Position numbers and translations under genes: made by a program | Origin: a virus | Direction: 5' to 3' (one strand) | IMG/VR virus record: IMGVR_UViG_3300045988_166693 | Location: 1 to 64,000 of that record | Length of the DNA stretch: 64,000 nt | Notes under the pieces: generated by a model | What the model was told of the DNA's origin: nothing | Database searches by the model: none | The model's input: the letters and a program-made list of their open reading frames with translations, nothing else | Part shown: positions 52,468-64,000 of the stretch, piece by piece | Layout of the letters: the number at the start of each line of letters is the position of its first letter | Numbering within the stretch: the stretch's first letter is position 1

Positions 52468-53100
52468 TTATTTATACGGATTCTCCCGGTACTCCGGAAG
52501 AATGAACTGTATGTTCACCGCCGCTTCATGCAGCACCTTGTGTACCTGCTCCTCGCTCACCTCCATTTCGTCGGTAAATTCGGTGAAGATGTTTCCTACC
52601 CAGTCGGACGCGCTGTTGAGTCTCTTGATGGCTACGGCCTTGCATCCGTTTGTGACGAAAAGCGATTTCGCCATCTTGTCCTTCACCTGCGTGTCGATGT
52701 CGGTGAAGCAGAGATACAGGTTCTCCGCCAGTCCCTGACTGAACACCGCCATCTCGCTCATGGGCAGACGCTGTACATTGTCCTTCATGCCCGAAACCCC
52801 CTTGCGCTTTACCTCGAAATAGATGGAAAGAAAGGCTGCGTTCCCCAACGGGTGTGGCTGCACGATGTAAACCCTGTCGGCTTTTGTTTCGTAGAGCACT
52901 TTCCACAACTCGCCGAACACCTTTGCCGTGTTCTCGCTCCGTTTGAATCCCAACCGTTCGGTCTCCTGTTTGTATCGCTCCAGCTTGAGATCATTCATTT
53001 TGTCGCGAAACTTCCGGTTCCTTTTGTCAATCCAGTTGAGAACAAAGGTTATGATAGAAAGTGCACCTGCAAAAATAGCCGCTACCATTTCTGCACCCAT
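52468..53100 (-). CDS. Membrane-anchored hypothetical protein
   Basis: 210 aa with an N-terminal TM helix (VAAIFAGALSIITFVLNWI). Confidence 0.5.
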   Translation of the reverse strand: MGAEMVAAIFAGALSIITFVLNWIDKRNRKFRDKMNDLKLERYKQETERLGFKRSENTAKVFGELWKVLYETKADRVYIVQPHPLGNAAFLSIYFEVKRKGVSGMKDNVQRLPMSEMAVFSQGLAENLYLCFTDIDTQVKDKMAKSLFVTNGCKAVAIKRLNSASDWVGNIFTEFTDEMEVSEEQVHKVLHEAAVNIQFILPEYRENPYK

Positions 53101-53118
53101 TCCGTCTGCTCCTTTCTG

Positions 53119-53520
53119 TTATTCCTTCTTAGGTAGTGTCTGATCTTTTTTAAAAAGTTCCCCGATGGCTTTCACCAGATTATAGAACCCGCATCCGGAC
53201 AGTCCGGCAGCCACTCCGTAGATCAGCGCACCCCACCACGCATAAACCGACAGCAGCGGAGACACCTGAAGCGCCCATGCCACCATGCAGACTACAATAC
53301 CCACGGCACACGACATACCGATCTTTGCCAGACGGTTGCCGGCCACGGCAGGGATCAGCTTCGCGATCTGCGTCACGATGGCCGAAATAAGTGCTACGAT
53401 ACCGGTAAACGTACCCAGGTCGATTGCGAAATCACCTCCGGCGGTTTCAGTTCCGGAAACTTCCTGTGCGAAGAGTGCACAGGGCATCAGCATTGCAAAG
53501 AGTAAAATCATCTTTTTCAT
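53119..53520 (-). CDS. Multi-pass membrane protein, holin candidate
   Basis: 133 aa. Signal-like N-terminus plus three hydrophobic helices and a charged C-terminus (KKDQTLPKKE). Preceded by promoter copy 5. Confidence 0.5.
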   Translation of the reverse strand: MKKMILLFAMLMPCALFAQEVSGTETAGGDFAIDLGTFTGIVALISAIVTQIAKLIPAVAGNRLAKIGMSCAVGIVVCMVAWALQVSPLLSVYAWWGALIYGVAAGLSGCGFYNLVKAIGELFKKDQTLPKKE

Positions 53521-53563
53521 TTTGTCGTCTTTTTTTAGTTAAACATCTGTTTTTCTTGCAATA

Positions 53564-53606
53564 CAAAGTTAGGAATTGGGCATTTCAGAATGAAGGACAA
53601 AAAAAA
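53564..53606 (-). promoter_or_regulatory. Conserved phage promoter copy 5 (T8-GTCCTTCA-N19-TAACTTTG)
   Basis: GTCCTTCA at 53591-53598, TAACTTTG at 53564-53571 (minus strand), with a 19 nt spacer. Confidence 0.65.
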
Positions 53607-53630
53607 TAGCCCGATCTCACGACCAGGCTA
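53599..53630 (-). terminator. rho-independent terminator after 53661..53894, fused to promoter copy 5
   Basis: Minus-strand RNA UAGCCUGGUC-GUGA-GAUCGGGCUA (10 bp, two G.U), followed by U8. Confidence 0.75.
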
Positions 53631-53660
53631 ACGATATAATAATTATATCCTATTTTTTCT

Positions 53661-53894
53661 TTACAAACACCCGATAATAATACCTACCGCATCAGCTATA
53701 AGGCCTTTCTTGTCGAATGTGCCTTTCTTCATCAGTTTATCCCAAACAACTTCCTTCCCCACTCCGGCCAATGCGGCAACTAATACCGCTACCCACAGAG
53801 GAAGGATCAGGTTAAGGACAACTACCATCACATTGCTCGCAATGACGTGCTTTAGTCCGTCATGTCCGAAATAATTGAATACTTTGCTTATCAT
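53661..53894 (-). CDS. Small membrane protein (holin/antiholin-like)
   Basis: 77 aa with two or three hydrophobic helices. Confidence 0.5.
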   Translation of the reverse strand: MISKVFNYFGHDGLKHVIASNVMVVVLNLILPLWVAVLVAALAGVGKEVVWDKLMKKGTFDKKGLIADAVGIIIGCL

Positions 53895-54601
53895 GCTTCT
53901 ACTTTTTGAACAAATCCACCACTTACAAGGTCTGCAAGGTTATGAGTTACCTTGTTGCCTGTATTTCTGATACACTTATATACTACTCCGCTTTGGGTGT
54001 AATACTTGCCTTCTTCCAGTATCATTCCCTGCCACATCGGATTTAACTCTTCGTTGTAAGGTATCGGGTCTTCCAATGTTCCTTCGTGATCTTCTACTAC
54101 TTCAACCCATAAAGACGACTGGTTCCCCGGAGACCAGTTAGATTGCGTAGTGTGATCCTGCATTACTTCGTAAAGTTTCCCGTTGTACTTATACTTTTCT
54201 CCCTGTTTTACCTGCACGCTGTCTGCCGACCATTCGGGATAAAACTCTTTAACCGACAATGCTTCCTTGTTGGTAAGATTGAGTGTGCCGATAATCTCAT
54301 TAACCATAGCGACATCTTTTTTCAACCGTTCCAAATCTGAATACTTCGGCATTACTCCACTTTCAGCAGTCCAAATCTCATCTTCCTGCACTTCTTCGCC
54401 TGTTCGTTTCCATATCTGCACGAAGCATACATCATACTCCCTGTAAACACAAAACTCCGCATCGGACGGCTGTTCCACTTCGCAAACAGGTTTATATCCT
54501 TGTGCGATAATTTCCTCTTCGGTAAGCTTTCCGCCCACCTGCACTCCTTTTTCCACTTCAAGCGTCTGAAGTGTTCCTTCTGTAATTTTTCCGTACTTCA
54601 T
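53891..54601 (-). CDS. Carbohydrate-binding-like protein, paralog of 59706..60350
   Basis: Start trimmed to the Met at 54601. Shares EDPIPYN...GKYY.Q.G..YKC.RNTG and LT..EAL..K..YP.W blocks with 59706..60350. Confidence 0.55.
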   Translation of the reverse strand: MKYGKITEGTLQTLEVEKGVQVGGKLTEEEIIAQGYKPVCEVEQPSDAEFCVYREYDVCFVQIWKRTGEEVQEDEIWTAESGVMPKYSDLERLKKDVAMVNEIIGTLNLTNKEALSVKEFYPEWSADSVQVKQGEKYKYNGKLYEVMQDHTTQSNWSPGNQSSLWVEVVEDHEGTLEDPIPYNEELNPMWQGMILEEGKYYTQSGVVYKCIRNTGNKVTHNLADLVSGGFVQKVEA

Positions 54602-54638
54602 ATTATTAATGTTTTTAAATATTGCTATCAATTGTCCG

Positions 54639-56111
54639 TTATGCTCGCATATATGCAGGCTCGCGGAGCTGTAGGGGGAACCTCCTTTTCGGATAGTACC
54701 TTGTCGGCGGTTTGAATATGGAAGCATAGTCGTTCAGGTTTAGATATGATGTCTTGTTTGGTTTATACTTGTCTTTCAGCACACAGACGAACCTGCCGTT
54801 CTTGTTGCGGAAATACAGCCATTCGGAGAATGTTTCCAGAGCTTTCTTTGCTATGCGCTTTTTGATGTTGAAGGACGCTGTTCCTTTCATCAGACCGAAA
54901 TAGCTGTTTATGCTTTGCATGACGTGTACGGCGTTATCGTACGACGGCATCCGGCTGTATTCTTCTATCGCTGTATGGAGGGCATGTACTGTACGGTTGG
55001 ATATGTAAATACGGTTCAGCTTTACTACCTTTCCGCAGAACTTTACTCCGTGTAAGGCCGGCTGTATGTAGAATTTATCGGGATGGACTTTGAGTTTCAA
55101 CCGCTCGGCTACTTTGATGAATACTTTCCGGGCATGGATTATTTCGGATGCGGTTTCTGCCACCACGCATATATCATCTACAAACCGTGTGTATCTAACT
55201 CCGGTTTTTATCATTTCCGCATCGGCTTCGGCCATGACGAGGTTTGCCAACAATTGGGAATAGAAGTTTCCAATCGGGAGTCCTTTTTCGGGCGGGAGTC
55301 CGAAAAGGCTTTTGTTGGGCGGTACTTTATCCCACATTTTTATATCGGAACGTCGCTCGCAGTCTGTGGCCGGATTATGCTGTATCAGGGTGTGAAGCAG
55401 GAGGAGTTTTTCCTCCTTATCGGGCTTGTCGTAGTACATATCGGCGTATTTCCGCAAGATACGGTATGCTGTTTCCTTGTCTATCGACATAAAGAAGCCT
55501 GATATGTCCATTGTGGCTACGAAGGCTTTCTTTGTGTAGCCGTCCGTTATATCACGGATGTTCCGCTGTATCTGCTCGATGGCTGTAGATGCGGAATGTC
55601 CGATACGGTTGCCGTGGCTTACATCACCATTGGCTTCATGGACTTTCTCGCATATCTCTCCAAGCATCGGGGCAACGTAGTGGTGCACGATGCGGTCGGT
55701 GTAGTTTGCTGCGAAAACTTCTCTATACACAGGGTAGTCGAGGACAAAGCAGATGCTTGTCTGTGGCTGGTATCCGTTGTCTATCCTGTTTATCAATTCA
55801 TAAATACGCGACAGGTTGAAATGGAACGATGCTGCTTCGAGCGATGCGTGCTTGTTTTTGTAACAGTCGCTTTCGGCAGCTATCCAGGCGGACACTTTTT
55901 CTGATAAATCGGAGGCGGGCACCACACTATAGGTGTTGTTCGTGTTGTTGTTGTTCAAGTTGCCATTGCCCATGTTCACATACCAGGCATTGTTGCCATT
56001 GTTGCGGACACAGCTCCAGACGTTGCCGCCCAGGACTTCTGCCCTGTTAATCGAAATAGCTTGCTCACTGCAAGCACAGGGACCTTTATCATTAAACAGT
56101 TCTGCCGACAT
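54639..56111 (-). CDS. DGR reverse transcriptase (the ORF as drawn includes the TR at its 5' end)
   Basis: DRIVHHYV, ATMDISGFFMSI, LPIGNFYSQLLANL (the DGR-typical SQ motif) and RFVDDICVV catalytic box. There is no ATG between the TR and the RT domain. Confidence 0.9.
   Translation of the reverse strand: MSAELFNDKGPCACSEQAISINRAEVLGGNVWSCVRNNGNNAWYVNMGNGNLNNNNTNNTYSVVPASDLSEKVSAWIAAESDCYKNKHASLEAASFHFNLSRIYELINRIDNGYQPQTSICFVLDYPVYREVFAANYTDRIVHHYVAPMLGEICEKVHEANGDVSHGNRIGHSASTAIEQIQRNIRDITDGYTKKAFVATMDISGFFMSIDKETAYRILRKYADMYYDKPDKEEKLLLLHTLIQHNPATDCERRSDIKMWDKVPPNKSLFGLPPEKGLPIGNFYSQLLANLVMAEADAEMIKTGVRYTRFVDDICVVAETASEIIHARKVFIKVAERLKLKVHPDKFYIQPALHGVKFCGKVVKLNRIYISNRTVHALHTAIEEYSRMPSYDNAVHVMQSINSYFGLMKGTASFNIKKRIAKKALETFSEWLYFRNKNGRFVCVLKDKYKPNKTSYLNLNDYASIFKPPTRYYPKRRFPLQLREPAYMRA
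55910..56037 (-). repeat. DGR template repeat (TR)
   Basis: 128 nt homologous to 56554-56681. It is rich in AAC codons on the coding (minus) strand. Confidence 0.9.
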
Positions 56112-56114
56112 AGT

Positions 56115-56468
56115 TCAAGACTTTTCGGTTCTGACATTCTTTATCCTCGCAAGCGAAGATAAAATGTTATCGCACAAAACGTCTATTACAGACGCTTTCT
56201 CTTTGCTGCATCCTCCAAGAGCCACTATCAAGTATATCCCAAACTGCAATTCGTATGTCAGTTCTGTAGCTCTTTTATAATAGTCCATTCCGCGGACCTG
56301 ACGCATAGCGTAACTGAAAAGCAATGCGCCTTGCTTCAGCATTGGGTCTATATATGTTCTGCTTATGACCTTATAAGCTTTGCTGTTGATTTCTATGAGA
56401 CAATTATTCAGGCGTATAACGTCCTGAATAATTGGTGCATCCAAATGTTTCCTCCCGGATCTGTTCAT
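56115..56468 (-). CDS. avd: DGR accessory variability determinant (Avd-like)
   Basis: 117-aa helical ORF in the canonical position between the target gene and TR-RT. Confidence 0.7.
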   Translation of the reverse strand: MNRSGRKHLDAPIIQDVIRLNNCLIEINSKAYKVISRTYIDPMLKQGALLFSYAMRQVRGMDYYKRATELTYELQFGIYLIVALGGCSKEKASVIDVLCDNILSSLARIKNVRTEKS

Positions 56469-56518
56469 TTCTATTGTCGCGTATTAAATGTTAATATATT
56501 TTAATGCAAAAGTTGATG

Positions 56519-56537
56519 AGCCGTGCTCCGCACGGCT
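56519..56537 (-). other. GC-rich hairpin just 3' of the VR and target stop codon
   Basis: AGCCGTG(C)-TCC-(G)CACGGCT, 7-8 bp, 9 nt past the stop codon and 17 nt past the VR end. Confidence 0.6.
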
Positions 56538-56545
56538 GAGATAAA

Positions 56546-57964
56546 TCAAAAAGCGGAGGCGGGCACCACACTATAGGTGCTGCCCGTGCTGCTGCTGGTC
56601 AAGGTGCCACCGCCCATGCCCACACACCAGGCACTGCCGCCACCGTTGCGGACACAGCTCCAGACGTTGCCGCCCAGGACTGCAGGAACTCCCCATTTCT
56701 CATAACTGTTAAGATAGTTTATTAATCCTGAAATTATGCTTTTGTTTGTCCAGTATGGATATAATTCTTTCTCTCCGGCCATATATTTATTTTCAAGAGA
56801 TTTAATGTAATACACAGCATGAGAGTCCGCCATATTCCAGTCATAATTTGTACTGGAATTGCCGGGTCTGCTTATGTATGGGGTAATGATATACCAATAA
56901 CCGTCAACGGTAATTGCTTCTGCTCCTTTTGCTCCCGGAGAAAGAAGAGGTCGTTCGGCAGAATTTACTCCGGTGTCGTTCATGTTTACACCGTTTGTTT
57001 TCTGCTGTTCGTACAGCCATTCAGCATATTCAGGTTTGAAATAGTATGCGTTGTTTACCGAATGCCTGTTATTTGTATTGTACATTGCTTTCAAGCCTGT
57101 ATTCTGGCCGTTTACGAAGAAAAACATATCTTCGCCTGCCTGAGCCTGTGTACCTGACGAATTCAGGATTTCCAGATCGGTTATTGTGCCTTCTGCTTCA
57201 GAAGATGTTATGCCGCTACAGATAGCAAACCTGTGGCGAAGCCATTCATTCTGTACATACATGGCTTCAAGACGTTCGGCGTAATTATCCGCTATCATAG
57301 CATTTACATTGCCGCAATTCTTTTCCATTATCCAGCGTTGCCTGGTATTGCCGCTGTAAAGTTCAAGCTTATCGTCTTCAGTTACGGTTACGCTCCAGTC
57401 GGCTGCAAAGTGACTTCCTACGGTATGTGTGCCAAGGTTTTCATCTACTGTCCCATGATAGTCAGTACCTTCGCGTACGCCGGTCATCTGGTCGTATTCA
57501 TAAATTGAGTGTTGCATAGCGTTTGATGCTTTGTTTGTGGTACCGGATGTGGCGTAATATTCTCCCTTCCACGGCCAATAAAGAATGGCTCTGATACCGT
57601 TACATTCCAAAGAAAAACCTACAGGAGGAGCAATGAGTTCATTGTCAAAGCCATTTGCCATGCTTCGGTCGTTCCATTCTTTTACTGTGTAATGTTTCAG
57701 GTCTGCATCTACAATCTTGATATGGTCGTTTGTGGCTATCGCTGCAGTCTTTCCTTCACTCGTGGTGATAATGGTCGAACGTACCGGCAGTATCAGCATT
57801 TGCGATTCAAGGGCGTATTCATCCACTGTCGGAATGGCTGCTATTTTAGCCGGGTATTCGGAAAGGATTTCTCCGACATTTTCCACTCCTTTTGCCTCAA
57901 TAGCTGCCTTAATCGCAGCTTTACTGGCTAATATCTTGTTTAGTTTGTCTGCTGTTGTTCCCAT
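56546..57964 (-). CDS. DGR target protein (tail-fibre-associated, C-type-lectin-like variable C-terminus)
   Basis: 472 aa. C-terminus VLGGNVWSCVRNGGGSAWCVGMGGGTLTSSSTGSTYSVVPASAF is the VR counterpart of the TR-encoded VLGGNVWSCVRNNGNNAWYVNMGNGNLNNNNTNNTYSVVPAS. Confidence 0.85.
   Translation of the reverse strand: MGTTADKLNKILASKAAIKAAIEAKGVENVGEILSEYPAKIAAIPTVDEYALESQMLILPVRSTIITTSEGKTAAIATNDHIKIVDADLKHYTVKEWNDRSMANGFDNELIAPPVGFSLECNGIRAILYWPWKGEYYATSGTTNKASNAMQHSIYEYDQMTGVREGTDYHGTVDENLGTHTVGSHFAADWSVTVTEDDKLELYSGNTRQRWIMEKNCGNVNAMIADNYAERLEAMYVQNEWLRHRFAICSGITSSEAEGTITDLEILNSSGTQAQAGEDMFFFVNGQNTGLKAMYNTNNRHSVNNAYYFKPEYAEWLYEQQKTNGVNMNDTGVNSAERPLLSPGAKGAEAITVDGYWYIITPYISRPGNSSTNYDWNMADSHAVYYIKSLENKYMAGEKELYPYWTNKSIISGLINYLNSYEKWGVPAVLGGNVWSCVRNGGGSAWCVGMGGGTLTSSSTGSTYSVVPASAF
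56554..56681 (-). repeat. DGR variable repeat (VR)
   Basis: 18 mismatches to the TR, confined to 56580-56644, all at TR adenines on the coding strand. Confidence 0.9.
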
Positions 57965-58215
57965 TATATAACTTCTCCGTTTATATTGTCAAGGATTGAG
58001 TTGATATCTCCTATCTGGTCGATTGTCGCATACTTTTTATCTGCTTGTAAACCCGTGATAAAGCCGCTTACATCGGGAATATCACTGGGTTTGGCCAGCT
58101 GATCTGTCTGTATATATTTTTGCGTACCATTATCGGAAACATAAATTCGCTCCGTGCCTTTTATATCTTCCAGTTTAGTCTGTACCTGACTTAATTTTGT
58201 TCCTGTAATTGCCAT
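57964..58215 (-). CDS. Small tail-fibre-associated protein
   Basis: 83 aa. 1-nt start/stop overlap with the DGR target gene. Confidence 0.5.
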   Translation of the reverse strand: MAITGTKLSQVQTKLEDIKGTERIYVSDNGTQKYIQTDQLAKPSDIPDVSGFITGLQADKKYATIDQIGDINSILDNINGEVI

Positions 58216-58269
58216 AATATTATCCTATTTTATATATCTCCAATACTTTTCATATCCAGGCATGGATTT

Positions 58270-58476
58270 CTACAGCTCTGACTCCAGCCTAAAGTACGTG
58301 CCGTCCTCCATCAGAAATAGACTGCCATCCTCCATAAGAAGCGCGTCCGAAATCTGAGGGATATCTTCTCCTCCAGAATCTTCACACAAATTACATGTGC
58401 AAATGTCTTCAGGTATTCTTATTTCAGCAATGCGTATGGCTCCTATATCAGTTTGCGCCAAATGGATTCCTTTCAT
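58270..58476 (-). CDS. Hypothetical small protein
   Basis: 68-aa ORF with a 4-nt overlap with the upstream gene. Confidence 0.45.
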   Translation of the reverse strand: MKGIHLAQTDIGAIRIAEIRIPEDICTCNLCEDSGGEDIPQISDALLMEDGSLFLMEDGTYFRLESEL

Positions 58477-58754
58477 TGACCAGCCTCCCTTATAGTCGCC
58501 CTAACAGGCTTGTTTGTCACTGAAATCTTTATATTTTTGGGATATACTGCATGACAGAAATCAGCATCAATCACTTCTCCCCAGCTTGACTGCTGGTAGC
58601 ATTTCTTGTACCTTCCCTCGTTACTTCCACGCTGGTATAAGATAAAAGAACCAACCTCTTCCATTTCAATATGCAGATTATAATCTGCATTTACCTGAAC
58701 TTCCGCCGAAAACATATTTTCATCGGGATTGAACACTAATTGTTTTTCTTCCAT
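58473..58754 (-). CDS. Hypothetical protein
   Basis: Start trimmed to the Met at 58754 (MEEKQLVF...), because the longer ORF would run through promoter copy 6. Confidence 0.5.
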   Translation of the reverse strand: MEEKQLVFNPDENMFSAEVQVNADYNLHIEMEEVGSFILYQRGSNEGRYKKCYQQSSWGEVIDADFCHAVYPKNIKISVTNKPVRATIREAGQ

Positions 58755-58768
58755 ATCTTTTTTTATTG

Positions 58769-58811
58769 TAAAGATAAAGATTAACGGAACATATTTGAAG
58801 GACAAAAAAAA
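58769..58811 (-). promoter_or_regulatory. Conserved phage promoter copy 6 (T8-GTCCTTCA-N19-TATCTTTA)
   Basis: GTCCTTCA at 58796-58803, the -7-like box at 58769-58776 (minus strand), with a 19 nt spacer. Confidence 0.6.
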
Positions 58812-58835
58812 TAGCCCGGTCTCACAACCAGGCTA
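58804..58835 (-). terminator. rho-independent terminator fused to promoter copy 6 (sequence twin of 53599-53630)
   Basis: Minus-strand RNA UAGCCUGGUU-GUGA-GACCGGGCUA followed by U8. Confidence 0.7.
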
Positions 58836-58879
58836 GCCTATGGATATTATAAACAAATTGAAGTATTGATCATCCTTTG

Positions 58880-58909
58880 AAAAAAGAAGGAGACGATTTC
58901 TCGTCTCCT
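58880..58909 (-). terminator. rho-independent terminator in an ORF-free region
   Basis: Minus-strand RNA AGGAGACGA-GAAA-UCGUCUCCU followed by UCUUUUUUC. Confidence 0.65.
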
Positions 58910-59225
58910 CCCCACATTCTATCACTCATTGAGCACTACCTCATTATAGAATGTCGTTTAATTCTCACTCTTCGGAATAGATCGCGTTCTCGGTTTACAC
59001 GTGCGAAATGTTTTCGATGCAAAGGTATAGAAAAGATTATTTGCAGCAAACATTTCTGCGGATATTTGTTTGAATTATGTTAGTTTTAACTTATTTTTAA
59101 CCTATTATTATCCATTTTCGCCATCCGGCGACAAAAAAGGCGGTTTTTTAAGCCCGCCCATGATCTGATCATTCGTCTTTGAGGTAGTCCAACGTATTTT
59201 ATTTATATCTAATCGAAAATATAAT

Positions 59226-59705: not shown

Positions 59706-60350
59706 TTAGTTTGCTACTTCTACATAAATTCCTACAAGTCCGGACAAGTCCTGATATACGGCCTGTCCGGTGTTTCTGGTACATTTGTACGTGATACCAT
59801 TCTGGGAGTAATACTTTCCTTCAAATAACTCCATGTTGTTATTGTACGGAATAGGATCTTCTTTTGTCCCGGCATTGGTTTCGTTGATTTCTTCGTACAA
59901 TGCTGCCGTATCAACGCTAGGCGGTTGGTTTTCCAGTACATTTTCAATAGTCTGTTTCACTTTATAAAGCCTGTCCTGATAAAGCACCTTGTAATCTTTT
60001 TCAAGTTTCTGACTGATGAAATTTTCCCAGGCTGGGTACAGGTTCTTAAACTGCAATGCCTGTTCGTCCGTAAGGTTCATGGCGTTGATCTGTGAAGCAA
60101 ACAGACCGATCATCTGATTTACCTGTTCTTCCGGATAGACTACCTGACCCCTTGCAGCTTTCTTTGCCTTGAAGATACGTTCCGCATCTTCTTTGGTGAT
60201 TTCAGTCCATTCATCGTTACTTTCATCCAAAGGGATATATACCTGTTTCGCTACTACCCGATCTTCATCTTTTGTTGCGGAAGATTGCGTAAGAAACTTC
60301 CCATACATCGGGGATATCCACTTTCCTTCTTGTTCTGTTCTTATTTCCAT
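59706..60350 (-). CDS. Carbohydrate-binding-like protein, paralog of 53891..54601
   Basis: Shared C-terminal blocks (EDPIPYNNNMELFEGKYYSQNGITYKCTRNTGQ). Confidence 0.55.
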   Translation of the reverse strand: MEIRTEQEGKWISPMYGKFLTQSSATKDEDRVVAKQVYIPLDESNDEWTEITKEDAERIFKAKKAARGQVVYPEEQVNQMIGLFASQINAMNLTDEQALQFKNLYPAWENFISQKLEKDYKVLYQDRLYKVKQTIENVLENQPPSVDTAALYEEINETNAGTKEDPIPYNNNMELFEGKYYSQNGITYKCTRNTGQAVYQDLSGLVGIYVEVAN

Positions 60351-61518: not shown

Positions 61519-61746
61519 TTATTCCTCCTTACTATTAAATTTGCATGTAGCGTCTTTATACACTACAAGATTCCCTTCTACGTCAAGAGATCCCTTTACA
61601 GTAACATGACCTTTGACAAGTAAATCTCCTTCAATAACTCCTTTTTCCGGGATCAATACTTGTTTCTCCACTACTTTTGTTACAATCTTCTCGGTCGGAA
61701 TGTCTAACTTAAACACTCTGATCATCCAAAGTACGAACTTCTTCAT
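61519..61746 (-). CDS. Small protein with beta-helix-like repeats
   Basis: 75 aa. GDLLVKGHVTVKGSLDVEGNLVV. Overlaps the 3' end of the fibre gene. Confidence 0.45.
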   Translation of the reverse strand: MKKFVLWMIRVFKLDIPTEKIVTKVVEKQVLIPEKGVIEGDLLVKGHVTVKGSLDVEGNLVVYKDATCKFNSKEE

Positions 61747-64000
61747 AGCCTAGCTTTTTAAGTTGTTTTTTTAATATGACTATTTCTCTCTCAAGTTTCT
61801 TGATTTTCTTATCGGTTCTTGTTTCATAAGTTAGCAAGTGTCTAGCGGTATGAACCGCAAACGTATACGCTACTGTTGCATAGTCCATAGACAGGAAGTT
61901 ATCATTCTCTTCCACGGCCCACGGAAGGATTGACTGAGTATATTGGGCCGATCCTCCCAAGTTCAGCCTATTTTGATTCATATTAGGTCTATTCCACCGA
62001 TACACAAATGAAGGTGCTTTTGCTATGTCCATAAGAGACAAATTTACCTGCTGCATTATTGACTTGTATCGTATATCAGAACTATAAAATGTGGCACCGC
62101 CAGATACAAGCAAGTTACCTACTATTTCAACGTAACCGCCTCCATATATAGAAAATGAGCATCCTGCACTTGTACCTGCGTCATTATTACTTACAGCCAT
62201 AAAAATGCGCCCCCAGTCATTCGCATCATCACGTACAGATCCAAAAACATATCTAGTTTGGTACCCTCTACCATTCACAATATCTCCCCATCTTATGATT
62301 GGCCTAAAAGTACCACCATTTACATATATCCCATCGCTGGAATATCTTATAGACGAAAGGTTAGAAGTAAACATTTCTGATGATTCCAAACCTGTTAAAG
62401 TATTATCTTCTAATATATATCTTGCTCCTCTAATATCACTTGACCCGTAAATACCTCCATTTACATGCAACTTATAACTGGGAGATGTAGTTCCTATACC
62501 AACATATCCGCTGGGATTTATTCCTAGATTTGAACCAAGATTTTGGATAATTCTTGCACCGGCATATCCTATAATATCATTGTTGCCTATATCAATGTTG
62601 CCTGTGACATTACTTGTTCCGTCAAAGGATTGTCCCCAAATAGTTCGTGCTGTCTGTAACTTAGTAGCTGATGCAACATTATCACTTAATAAAGCCAAAT
62701 TTCCGTTTCTTGTTGGCAAAATCAATGTGTTACTATGATCCCCGTCGCATTGCAGTCTAGTTGAATAATCAATGGCTCCAGTTGATGAATTATGAAAATC
62801 AATATATTTTCCGACTTCAAATGTTCCATCAGTTTCTACAAAAGGAATAACTCCCCAATATGTACTTCCGGATCTCTTGTGTGTTCCATCTAACTTGTCG
62901 GCATTGCTGGCATTTCCACTAATATTAATACCCCATGTTCCACTTGCTCCGCTTCCCGTTTTAGTAGGGTACTTGCTGTCGCTTTCACTTTTTGTATATG
63001 CACCGATTCCAGCCGGAGTTATATTGATAGTCTTAGCCCCGGTTGCGTTGTAAGTAAATTGGTTCGTTCCCTCTGTTGTTCCTCCGTTCAGTTTTACAAT
63101 TAAATTCTGCTTCCCTGTGACTTCTGAAATAGTCGGCCAGCGAGTAACGTATGCAGACGGAGCAGCCTTTAACAACGCATCCCAATTAGCGTGCAGATCC
63201 GAGATCGTAGCAATGCTTACAGCCGTTAGCCATGCAGGTTTTTGCGCTGCTAGTACAGAATCCCAGCTAGAATGCAGGTCAGTAATATTTGCAATATTAG
63301 TCGCAAACACAGAAGGCTTTCCGGAAATATTGCCCCATGCAACGCTACCAGCTTCTCCACCTCCTACTGCTACTAATTTCCCGTTTTCCTTCTTTATAGT
63401 AGTACCATCCACTACTACCCCATCCATGACTGTAGACACGGAAACCGGATCTATTGCATACATTGTAACACCGCCTGTAACAGCTAGATTTCCCTCTAGG
63501 GTAATTACTCCGTCTGCGGTTTTGTGCAAGCGAATACCGCCTATATAAAAATCTCCAGTTTTAGTAACTCCGTCTATATTTGCATTTCCACCTAAATATA
63601 AATCTTTCCATTTCGCATCAGACAAGCCTAAATTAATGCTGTTGCTTGCTGCGCCAAAAGGTCTAAAAGATTTAAGTTCTAACAAGACAGATAAAGTATC
63701 ATCATTGTTGATTTTAAATCTTATGTTTTGGTTATTTTTAGTAATTACATCAATAGTTCCACTTCCTGTTATATTTCCAACATTATCTAAATTTCCGCTT
63801 ACATTCTCAGTTCCGTCAAAGCTACGTCCCCATAACGTGCGAGCAGTTTCCAACTTAGTGGAAGCGTAAGCATACAGGTCGGTTATTGTTTTTGTCGTTC
63901 CACCGACAGTTATGGAAAGGTTAGTTGCTGATGAAGTTGATAATGCAGTAAGAAGTCCTGTTTTGTGAGTTCCGTCCAAAAGATCAGCGTCTAGACCGCT
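61709..64000 (-). CDS. Tail fibre with a C-terminal intramolecular chaperone (Peptidase_S74-like) domain; 5' end lies outside the window
   Basis: The frame stays open to the window edge. Internal repeats TART(L/I)WG(R/Q)SFDGT.NV(S/T)GN. C-terminus SSDIRYKSIMQQVNLSLMDIAKAPSFVYRW...GGSAQYTQSILPWAV...MDYATVAYTFAVHTARHLL...KKLEREIVILKKQLKKLG matches the endosialidase chaperone pattern. Confidence 0.75.
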   Translation of the reverse strand, partial: SGLDADLLDGTHKTGLLTALSTSSATNLSITVGGTTKTITDLYAYASTKLETARTLWGRSFDGTENVSGNLDNVGNITGSGTIDVITKNNQNIRFKINNDDTLSVLLELKSFRPFGAASNSINLGLSDAKWKDLYLGGNANIDGVTKTGDFYIGGIRLHKTADGVITLEGNLAVTGGVTMYAIDPVSVSTVMDGVVVDGTTIKKENGKLVAVGGGEAGSVAWGNISGKPSVFATNIANITDLHSSWDSVLAAQKPAWLTAVSIATISDLHANWDALLKAAPSAYVTRWPTISEVTGKQNLIVKLNGGTTEGTNQFTYNATGAKTINITPAGIGAYTKSESDSKYPTKTGSGASGTWGINISGNASNADKLDGTHKRSGSTYWGVIPFVETDGTFEVGKYIDFHNSSTGAIDYSTRLQCDGDHSNTLILPTRNGNLALLSDNVASATKLQTARTIWGQSFDGTSNVTGNIDIGNNDIIGYAGARIIQNLGSNLGINPSGYVGIGTTSPSYKLHVNGGIYGSSDIRGARYILEDNTLTGLESSEMFTSNLSSIRYSSDGIYVNGGTFRPIIRWGDIVNGRGYQTRYVFGSVRDDANDWGRIFMAVSNNDAGTSAGCSFSIYGGGYVEIVGNLLVSGGATFYSSDIRYKSIMQQVNLSLMDIAKAPSFVYRWNRPNMNQNRLNLGGSAQYTQSILPWAVEENDNFLSMDYATVAYTFAVHTARHLLTYETRTDKKIKKLEREIVILKKQLKKLGYEEVRTLDDQSV

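Follow-up and report, generated by a model that had tools for sequence, protein, structure and literature searches.

Does the repeat pair lying next to a reverse transcriptase (RT) gene within the tail-fibre cluster of this phage belong to a diversity-generating retroelement (DGR), is the element active in nature, and what does it diversify? DGRs are very common in gut phages. To our knowledge, no other natural system hypermutates proteins in a targeted way in prokaryotes or their viruses. In the window, i.e. the whole 64-kb stretch of DNA analysed here, the minus-strand order target(VR)-avd-TR-RT described by the sequence-only reading was found again, with avd assigned by fold and context (Table 1). 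We conclude that this is almost certainly a canonical Avd-type DGR (target-avd-TR-RT) of an uncultured tailed phage of ~100 kb. The TR/VR differences are confined to adenines, the RT groups with the DGR clade, the target gene ends in an AAY-rich and stop-proof VR and, at the population level, contig comparison reveals directional transfer from TR to VR.

Table 1. Coordinates of the DGR cassette and neighbouring genes in the window.
Feature	Position	Strand	Remarks
Holin	53119-53520		Lysis genes downstream
RT ORF, 490 aa	54639..56111	(-)	Pfam RVT_1 1e-15; phrog_1423 5e-51, residues 77-440
TR	55910-56037	(-)	36 adenines, 14 AAY codons
Hairpin GCTTGC-AGTGA-GCAAGC	56059..56075	(-)	In 77-nt avd-TR spacer, 21 nt 5' of TR
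Avd-like gene, 117 aa, pI 9.5	56115..56468	(-)	Assigned by fold and synteny
Target-site hairpin AGCCGTGC-GGA-GCACGGCT	56519..56537	(-)	16 nt past end of TR/VR homology
IMH	56546..56571	(-)	Shared 18-nt segment plus VR-specific end
VR	56554-56681	(-)	Changes in window at 56580-56644
DGR target gene, 472 aa	56546..57964	(-)	ORF; VR in C-terminal domain
Tail-fibre gene	61709-63979		Upstream of target

Differences between TR and VR

Scripted re-alignment of TR and VR reproduced the gapless match over 128 nt that had been proposed from the letters alone, together with its 18 mismatches, all of which have A in the TR on the coding strand (16 A>G and 2 A>C) and span TR 55936-56000 / VR 56580-56644. 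Half of the 36 TR adenines are altered and none of the 92 non-A positions, the probability of all 18 mismatches falling on A by chance being 2.4e-12 (hypergeometric). The homology ends abruptly at both flanks, and no extra VR-like copy is present in the 64-kb window. In the target ORF, all 18 changes affect the first or second position of a codon, and the Asn-rich TR peptide and the VR peptide quoted earlier were both recovered. A stop codon is unreachable by adenine change in any of the 21 A-containing codons of the TR, and mutagenesis of its adenines makes ~10^20.6 peptides possible. Taken alone, the window VR, with A>G and A>C only, has a less random spectrum than expected; its relatives show all three substitutions.

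Variation among close relatives

The close-relative set comprised 27 metagenomic phage contigs with 94-99% RT identity which, together with the window, gave 28 cassettes. These carried 28 distinct VRs as against 10 TR variants, and 422 of the 427 TR/VR differences fell on TR adenines, with changes to G, T and C; variable adenine-templated sites occupied 56572-56668 plus 56681, the first base of the repeat. Values of pi peaked at 0.22 in the VR core compared with 0.009-0.015 in the TR, where the cassette varies least among the relatives. Minority alleles of the TR were matched by the cognate VR in 26 of 27 cells, and a 3-nt TR deletion was mirrored in its own VR. A separate TR/VR pair was present in each of five divergent lineages that share the Avd-like family, the differences being adenine-specific except at the IMH/IMH* ends. 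No third repeat copy was found, a 20-mer of the constant 5' part of the repeat occurring twice per related contig (a count that is blind to a VR mutated at the 20-mer's two adenines).

Since every VR is different and both TR alleles and an indel have been copied to the cognate VR, the element is evidently active in nature, with TR-to-VR transfer appearing to be ongoing in this contig-level population comparison. The occurrence of distinct VRs and copied TR alleles at 94-99% RT identity further suggests that turnover is faster than background divergence. The alternative that the cassette is the relic of a formerly active DGR, with a VR that is now frozen, would accommodate the skewed spectrum of the window VR (16 A>G and 2 A>C) and the state of one relative, L032, in which VR/TR recombination removed avd along with the TR and the greater part of the RT and the VR has non-adenine changes, so that decay does occur in this lineage. 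We nevertheless regard a fossil as highly improbable here: the RT, Avd-like gene, TR, IMH and hairpin of the window are all intact, it contains zero non-adenine TR/VR differences, and its closest relatives all differ in VR and have TR alleles copied into it.

The reverse transcriptase

The RT proper starts near residue 77 (~55883) of the ORF. In a profile search against the PDB its best match was the Bordetella DGR RT (bRT, 8ub7_A; E 3.6e-40), the next class following at 1.3e-20. Both of the motifs claimed for it, IGNFYSQ and FVDD, were located, the catalytic residues (D132 and FVDD) are intact, and the catalytic D, FVDD and DGR-type IGNxxSQ are conserved. On this sequence evidence, the RT is a member of the DGR clade.

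A single-sequence search gave a weak match to bRT (E 2.5e-4) and also scored against group II, retron and DRT models. The latter result would suit a reading in which ordinary duplication and gene conversion, with positive selection on the target, produced the repeats, and the RT comes from an unrelated retron, Abi or group II system. Selection, however, cannot confine 422 of 427 differences to sites with A in the other copy, and the RT profile is ~20 orders of magnitude better on DGR RT than on any other RT class. Moreover, the RT has IGNxxSQ and not the group II QGxxxSP (as seen in the aligned GsI-IIC RT), and no intron RNA or retron msr/msd match was returned by Rfam over 53000-59000. The adenine confinement and the RT profile match effectively refute ordinary duplication, to which we give next to no credence.

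The Avd-like accessory protein

The 117-aa protein had no match in Pfam, NCBIfam, PHROG or PDB sequences (phmmer for the PDB), the profile of its family did not match Avd in the PDB, and PF05635 (23S_rRNA_IVP) recognized one of 20 family members, faintly (E 0.023). As the sequence routes to Avd all fail, its assignment draws on fold and context alone. AF2 predicts a four-helix bundle (pLDDT 80), for which Foldseek returned 2gsc and 2rld as the best matches, followed by 4dwl (Avd) and the Avd chains of 8ub7 (TM 0.67-0.77), with weak E-values of 0.01-0.3. The gene sits between the VR-bearing gene and the RT in every lineage carrying it (10 lineages). Membership of the Avd family was not found by sequence; a small (~110-130 aa), basic four-helix bundle beside TR and RT was. 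Avd itself acts as a homopentamer, to which both RT and DGR RNA bind. Predicted fold, pI and synteny together support calling the protein Avd-like.

IMH and hairpins

The VR ends in an IMH, as defined by Wu et al. (2018), and the TR in a non-identical IMH*. Common to both is an adenine-free, GC-rich segment of 18 nt, GTGTGGTGCCCGCCTCCG (56554-56571), after which the VR goes on with CTTTTTGA, the end of the gene, and the TR with ATTTATCA, which constitutes IMH*. About one-third of DGRs, including most phage DGRs, have a GC-rich inverted repeat beyond the IMH. Such a repeat is found here as the target-site hairpin, which is absent after the TR, shows no change in the 28 close relatives and, in nine divergent lineages, retains a conserved core GTGC-GG(N)A-GCAC with a covarying lower stem (88.9% of cells paired; covariation score reached by 0 of 500 shuffles). 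It matches the element of Guo et al. (2011), with its 7-10 bp stem and GRNA loop; compared with the GRNA consensus, the loop reads GG(N)A, and GGA (3 nt) in the window lineage.

The hairpin in the avd-TR spacer recurred in each of 10 lineages, at ~20 nt on the 5' side of the TR, with 95.8% of cells paired and five of eight pairs changed on both sides, a result obtained in none of 500 shuffles, while slid controls were 21-46% paired. This structure probably belongs to the DGR RNA. No such hairpin (RCTTG...CAAGY) precedes the TR in BS-TP1, L031 and L034. On the other side of the TR, the RT core begins after ~27 nt, leaving no non-coding spacer. RNAalifold on the 210 nt that begin at the 3' end of the TR and reach into the RT gave no conserved structure across nine lineages (-0.8 kcal/mol), and neither a BPP-1-like Avd-binding stem-loop nor a cPRT-stop duplex was found in those 210 nt. 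At a permissive threshold, Rfam placed no known RNA family over either hairpin (53000-59000); its lone sub-threshold match in this interval was a Bacteroides sRNA outside the cassette.

An RT frame running through the TR

The RT ATG lies 3 nt past the avd stop, and the N-terminal ~75 RT codons are the spacer and the TR read in the same frame. Between the avd stop and the RT core, this frame is unbroken in nine of nine lineages (30-50% Avd identity), in which the remaining two frames contain 2-11 stops. The conservation in all nine of an open frame with a start abutting the avd stop suggests that it is really read; the alternative would be an RT start beyond the TR, e.g. at the GTG at 55895-55897. 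Spacer polymorphism in the close clade amounts to four sites, at codon positions 1, 1, 3 and 2, which are too few to decide on coding and, if anything, unlike purifying selection on a peptide.

It is possible, if rather doubtful, that the TR is part of the RT coding sequence and not a separate non-coding template, with (coupled) translation starting at the avd stop and passing through a spacer of ~25 codons and then the TR, and that the RNA elements 3' of the TR in BPP-1 are replaced by one covarying 5' hairpin serving as a cDNA-synthesis stop or an Avd/RT docking site. The RT would then carry an Asn-rich copy of the target C-terminus at its N-terminus, and template RNA and RT mRNA would be one molecule, from which cis-preference could follow.

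The target protein and its C-terminal domain

The target consists of a helical N-terminal segment, a beta-rich middle lacking known relatives and a putative C-terminal lectin-like domain of ~90-100 aa that contains the VR. Its homologues number more than 360, none with a Pfam domain or name, and tblastn of the protein against 50,697 GenBank phage records gave 0 matches. The AF2 model has a pLDDT of 79 overall, rising to 88-94 at the C-terminus (~90 aa), for which Foldseek ranked 8q4e, the C-terminal domain of Lcl, first in the PDB (E 0.01) and snake C-type lectins next. In BFVD, the matches were DUF1566 phage proteins (rmsd 2.4-3.4 Å, probability 1.0), and phage tail-fibre proteins are among the best structural neighbours. 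PF07603 gave a weak, sub-threshold match in 21 of 69 homologues and none in the window protein itself. These local structural matches of modest E-value and the sub-threshold Pfam matches point to a lectin-like fold of the DUF1566/Lcl_C type. Among CLec-type DGR variable proteins, the DUF1566/Lcl_C class forms category 'd' (Wu et al., 2018).

The target gene lies in the neighbourhood of the tail-fibre gene, further fibre-cluster ORFs and the lysis genes, and translationally abuts an upstream 83-aa ORF through an ATGA overlap at 57964. From this position it is reasonable to infer, as the sequence-only reading did, that hypervariation of the VR may act on a receptor-binding tip. The DGR might also be a working one with a different kind of target, either a decoration or adhesin for non-host ligands (mucus, immune molecules) or a non-virion protein. 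Residues 1-380 had no credible full-length Foldseek match, no fibre, spike or baseplate protein similar to this N-terminal part was detected, and non-structural or unusual phage DGR targets are documented, e.g. Quimbyvirus and tentaclins. We consider a target other than the tip unlikely, though far from negligible, given the placement among fibre-cluster and lysis genes, the ATGA overlap and the phage tail-fibre and DUF1566 proteins among the C-terminal structural neighbours.

Proposed mechanism

Following the BPP-1 paradigm, from which we infer RNA-templated cis-primed cDNA synthesis, the roles of the Avd-like protein and of the hairpins, and the target as a receptor-binding protein, the canonical DGR proposed here would operate as follows. 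A transcript comprising the avd 3' end, spacer, TR and RT would be bound by the RT and the Avd-like protein. The TR would be reverse-transcribed with random misincorporation opposite adenines, and the cDNA, guided to its site by the GC-rich IMH together with the hairpin lying 16 nt farther downstream, would overwrite the VR in the 3'-terminal part of the target gene. A maximum of 21 codons, of which 14 are AAY, could thereby be recoded on the surface of the putative lectin-like C-terminal domain, with no stop codons ever arising. Specific to this clade would be translation of the RT from the avd stop through spacer and TR, and a 5' hairpin acting as an RNA element, e.g. a cDNA-synthesis stop or protein-binding site, in place of the elements 3' of the TR in BPP-1.

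Phage lineage and novelty

A nucleotide search against the 50,697 GenBank phage records gave 0 matches, and the TerL of the phage shares at most 30% identity with any deposited phage. Scanning GTDB species-representative genomes with the RT recovered distant DGR RTs only (30-31%), from a Sphingomonadales and a Saccharibacteria MAG, and no prophage copy was found in these genomes. The host phylum is probably Bacteroidota. As far as sequence searches go, neither GenBank phages nor Pfam include this phage lineage or the families of the target and of the Avd-like protein. The DGR system itself is already well known, and the understanding of what a DGR is remains unchanged. What the locus contributes is a well-documented example of a DGR, evidently active, from an uncultured and deep-branching lineage of ~100-kb phages, along with three things that go unrecognized in current databases: a target scaffold, an Avd-like family missed by sequence profiles and a series of 28 naturally occurring VR variants.

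Comparison with known DGRs

The cassette has the gene order of the DGR prototype BPP-1 (mtd-avd-TR-brt), i.e. architecture B1 of Wu et al. (2018), and shares with it the adenine-specific TR-to-VR differences, a GC-rich IMH, a VR at the 3' terminus of a fibre-cluster gene whose product has a lectin-type fold (here putative), a GC-rich hairpin with a GRNA-like loop a few nt after the VR, bRT as the best PDB match of the RT, and an accessory protein with an Avd fold (here predicted) and basic pI. It differs from BPP-1 in that the two RTs align weakly in single-sequence search, the Avd-like protein lacks detectable sequence similarity to Avd and the target hairpin loop is reduced to GGA in the window lineage. 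The catalytic box is FVDD here, compared with Y-x-DD in bRT and the two aligned DGR RTs of non-gut origin. Furthermore, the essential Avd-/RT-binding elements of BPP-1 lie 3' of the TR, whereas here the RT frame crosses the TR from the avd stop with no non-coding spacer 3' of it, and a covarying hairpin is situated 5' of the TR.

The Bacteroides phage DGRs (Bacuni_F1/F2/F4, BS-TP1, Hankyphage, Quimbyvirus) likewise have a gut/Bacteroidota phage setting, and the nearest GenBank phage RTs are those of Bacteroides uniformis phages F1/F2/F4 and BS-TP1 (30-34% identity). BS-TP1 resembles the present element in having a target, a four-helix-bundle protein and an RT, with the TR within the annotated RT ORF, but its four-helix protein could not be aligned to the Avd-like family by hhalign and it has no comparable hairpin upstream of the TR. 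For Quimbyvirus, the same population signature was used for its DGR. A TR inside the 5' end of the RT ORF, as seen here, is also the hallmark of the 'Group 3' cassettes of Schillinger et al. (2012), a class set by annotation only, whereas in the present clade the open frame and the avd-abutting start are kept across nine lineages. The missing non-coding spacer 3' of the TR, the RT frame through the TR and the small 5' hairpin together offer a compact contrast to BPP-1, and with it testable clues to the essential DGR RNA elements.

Cassette organization

The order of the minus-strand ORFs listed for 54400-58200, namely a target gene (472 aa), a 117-aa ORF, a 128-nt repeat and a reverse transcriptase (RT) domain, bore out the target(VR)-avd-TR-RT arrangement of a diversity-generating retroelement (DGR) claimed by the sequence-only reading. 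Scripted re-alignment of the template repeat (TR) and variable repeat (VR) reproduced exactly the 128-nt gap-free alignment and its 18 mismatches (16 A->G and 2 A->C), confined to TR 55936-56000 / VR 56580-56644. The TR base was adenine in all 18, and none (0/18) fell at a non-adenine position, where mismatches would by that reading have counted against a DGR. With 36 adenines among the 128 positions, the probability of 18 random mismatches all falling on A is 2.4e-12. Read in the target frame, every mismatch sits in a first or second codon position, the TR/VR likeness breaks off sharply at both ends, and no further VR-like copy was found on either strand of the 64-kb window. Some 10^20.6 peptides can arise from the TR, with stop codons out of reach of any adenine change. 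The earlier finding is real and was rightly interpreted; the element is a textbook Avd-type DGR, carried by a new phage lineage.

Features of the DGR cassette and its surroundings
Feature	Positions	Strand	Remarks
Transposase-like ORF, 386 aa	17862-19022	-	phrog_506, E 6e-99
Holin	53119-53520		
Paralogous ORF, downstream	53891-54727	-	phrog_30034, phrog_27545, CBM_5_12
490-aa ORF	54639-56111	-	encloses both TR and RT domain
TR, 128-nt repeat	55910-56037	-	inside 490-aa ORF
TR-upstream hairpin, GCTTGC-AGTGA-GCAAGC	56059-56075		21 nt 5' of TR
Avd-like ORF, 117 aa	56115-56468	-	
Target-site hairpin, AGCCGTGC-GGA-GCACGGCT	56519-56537		VR side only
Target ORF, 472 aa	56546-57964	-	
VR	56554-56681		
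Sigma-70 consensus	57963-57992	-	TTGACA-18-TATAAT
BTnc231-like stretch	58808-58941	-	intergenic, fibre cluster
Paralogous ORF, upstream	59706-60350	-	phrog_30034, phrog_27545
Tail-fibre protein	61709-63979		fibre cluster

Activity in natural populations

Scanning IMG/VR with the RT gave 30 contigs (55-120 kb; RT identity 94-99%), of which 27 had an ungapped TR/VR pair and, together with the window, formed the 28 cassettes used for population counts. These carried 28 distinct VRs as against 10 TR variants, and of the 427 TR/VR differences 422 lay at TR adenines, which were replaced by G in 235 cases, by T in 118 and by C in 69; 35 of the 36 adenine columns varied. TR minority alleles at non-adenine columns were present in the cognate VR in 26/27 cells; in one relative (L013:5215-6005) the TR lacked an AAC codon and its VR had the identical deletion, a template indel copied to the target. 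Nucleotide diversity peaked in the VR (0.22), and its minimum (0.009-0.017) extended from the 3' half of avd across the TR. The adenine rule also held in five divergent lineages, each with its own TR/VR pair. Such a pattern is what ongoing mutagenic retrohoming leaves in a population, and it constitutes strong natural-population evidence that the DGR is active.

One relative, IMGVR_UViG_3300030077_000008 (L032:4580-6160), has no functional DGR and retains a single repeat copy, VR-type on its 5' side with a TR-type 3' flank; avd was therefore deleted by VR/TR recombination. Its RT is cut after ~43 codons and reads directly into the downstream gene, and the frozen VR shows nine non-adenine differences from the window TR.

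Reverse transcriptase

The RT matched Pfam RVT_1 (E 1e-15) and, over ORF residues 77-440, PHROG 1423 'reverse transcriptase' (E 5e-51); single-sequence searches did not tell RT classes apart. A profile built from the window RT and four distant relatives, run against the PDB, best matched the Bordetella phage DGR RT (8ub7_A, E 3.6e-40), the next RT class being the group II intron protein LtrA (E 1.3e-20). In agreement with the DGR-type motif previously proposed, GLPIGNFYSQLLANL of the window RT aligned opposite GIPIGSLTSQLFANV of the Bordetella phage BPP-1 RT as I-G-x-x-x-S-Q, whereas the one group II RT aligned, GsI-IIC, has QGGPLSP at this position. The motif-A aspartate (MDISGFF) and FVDD box, catalytic residues whose absence was to have told against a DGR, are both present and invariant across this alignment.

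Accessory protein

The 117-aa ORF had no sequence match in Pfam, NCBIfam, PHROGs or PDB. A word-indexed search recovered four close copies only, and an exhaustive HMMER search 32 relatives (lowest identity 28%). A profile of 20 relatives did not match Avd in the PDB, and PF05635 matched faintly (E 0.023) in one family member only. The AlphaFold2 model is a four-helix bundle (pLDDT 80), for which Foldseek ranked 2gsc and 2rld best in the PDB, followed, at TM 0.67-0.77, by BPP-1 Avd (4dwl) and by Avd as seen in cryo-EM structures of the DGR RNP (8ub7, 8ub8 and 8ubb). The depositors label 2rld a 'S23 ribosomal protein family' protein, which we take to be the Pfam family that includes Avd. On the contigs of family members that were examined (L069-L080) a DGR partner adjoined the gene in every case: where the contig was long enough, a VR-bearing gene lay upstream and an RT gene downstream, and short contigs had at least one of the two. 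The predicted pI is 9.5, and Avd proteins average 9.5 (Wu et al., 2018). The original 'avd' assignment thus stands as to four-helix fold, pI and gene neighbours, but not as to sequence membership of the Avd family; because modelled fold and context support Avd, we call the protein Avd-like.

Target protein and fibre cluster

More than 360 metagenomic homologues of the target (~472 aa) were found, none with a Pfam domain or name, and tblastn gave no match in GenBank phages. The AlphaFold2 model (69 homologues in the alignment) had a pLDDT of 79, rising to 88-94 over the final ~90 residues. This C-terminal part best matched the Legionella Lcl C-terminal domain (8q4e) in the PDB, then snake-venom C-type lectin-like proteins, and in BFVD it matched DUF1566 phage proteins and a tail-fibre protein (2.4-3.4 A across 78-100 columns). 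PF07603 (Lcl_C, formerly DUF1566) matched below threshold in 21 of the 69 homologues; DUF1566-type VRs are a recognised lectin-fold class of DGR targets (Wu et al., 2018). Nothing matched residues 1-380. The tail-fibre protein, the holin and the two CBM5/12-related ORFs on either side of the cassette bear out the fibre-cluster setting; we infer that the target is a receptor-binding protein.

These flanking ORFs are paralogous; the listed ATG of the downstream one falls within the RT 3' end, and its true start is probably the ATG at 54601 (MKYGKITEG...). Outside the VR, the target body (56682-57964) had about twice the diversity of the RT (pi 0.05) or avd (0.035) among close relatives, its pi being 0.09 and reaching 0.20 at 57365-57604; this variation is independent of the DGR and may stem from recombination or from selection acting on the body of the protein. 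The sigma-70 consensus ending at the target start codon is perfect (12/12), although its relevance is in doubt should the host belong to the Bacteroidota and follow other promoter rules. The Rfam match to the Bacteroides sRNA BTnc231 is sub-threshold, scoring 24.8 bits (E 0.067) where the gathering score is 80.4.

Phage lineage

The window encodes a large terminase, prohead protease, 1936-aa tape-measure protein, fibre genes and a holin. TerL shared at most 30% identity with GenBank phages, most relatives infecting Bacteroidota, and the closest phage RTs belong to Bacteroides phages (30-34%). No prophage copy was found in GTDB representative genomes. The strong transposase match of a 386-aa ORF suggests a possible insertion sequence. 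Discovery value is modest because DGRs are catalogued in tens of thousands (about 31,000; Handa et al., preprint, introduction) and gut-phage DGRs are already well described; a specialist might pursue only the placement of the TR in the RT frame and the hairpin 5' of the TR.

RT frame through the TR

The 490-aa ORF starts 3 nt past the avd stop, crosses a 77-nt spacer and then the TR, which it reads in the frame used for the VR, and continues into the RT. Between avd stop and RT core (203-263 nt) this frame was stop-free in 9/9 testable lineages (30-50% Avd identity), against 2-11 stops in each of the other two, and in 8/9 a start codon lay within ~9 nt of the avd stop; no start codon after the TR was conserved. 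In the non-TR parts of five lineages, the three frames held 0, 8 and 13 stops. Since the spacer peptide is poorly conserved and its few polymorphisms do not favour codon position 3, open reading through the region, rather than the peptide, appears to be maintained. TRs that overlap annotated RT ORFs make up the 'group 3' of Schillinger et al. (2012); according to Wu et al. (2018), the TR is untranslated.

In the isolated Bacteroides phage BS-TP1 (PQ571274.1, 112 kb; L033:5103-7086), the DGR comprises a target CDS of about 2,190 aa, an RT and a protein annotated as a four-helix bundle; again the TR lies within the annotated RT ORF, which also overlaps the accessory gene. A same-clade DGR from Logan SRR27987836 (L070:155-1751; RT 43% identical) has in-frame TAG codons in the RT (nine, two coinciding with Q positions of the window) and Avd-like gene (four), a pattern consistent with TAG being read as Gln by that phage; the window keeps to the standard code.

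Conserved hairpins and comparison with known DGRs

Beyond the last variable adenine column, TR and VR share 18 GC-rich nt free of adenine and then diverge (IMH in the VR, IMH* in the TR). The target-site hairpin, 16 nt further on, was invariant in 28 close relatives; in nine divergent lineages a hairpin at this site conserves its GTGC-GG(N)A-GCAC top, and its lower stem covaries (pairing in 88.9% of cells, both-side changes in 14; 0/500 shuffles attained the score, slid controls 12-54%). It agrees with the element required for retrohoming, a GC-rich 7-10 bp stem that is capped by a GRNA loop and located 4-34 bp past the VR (Guo et al., 2011).

The TR-upstream hairpin occurred in 10/10 lineages, with 95.8% of cells paired, both-side changes in 5/8 pairs and a closing pair of G-C or A-U (five sequences each); 0/500 shuffles attained its score (slid controls 21-46%). 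It was not found in three DGRs of other clades, nor in Rfam. BPP-1 has Avd-binding and RT-binding stem-loops and the priming site 3' of its TR, whereas no conserved structure was detected there in the window clade. In BPP-1, cDNA synthesis is stopped by pairing between the spacer and the 20 nt that precede the TR (Handa et al., preprint); the TR-upstream hairpin may be the functional counterpart in the window clade.
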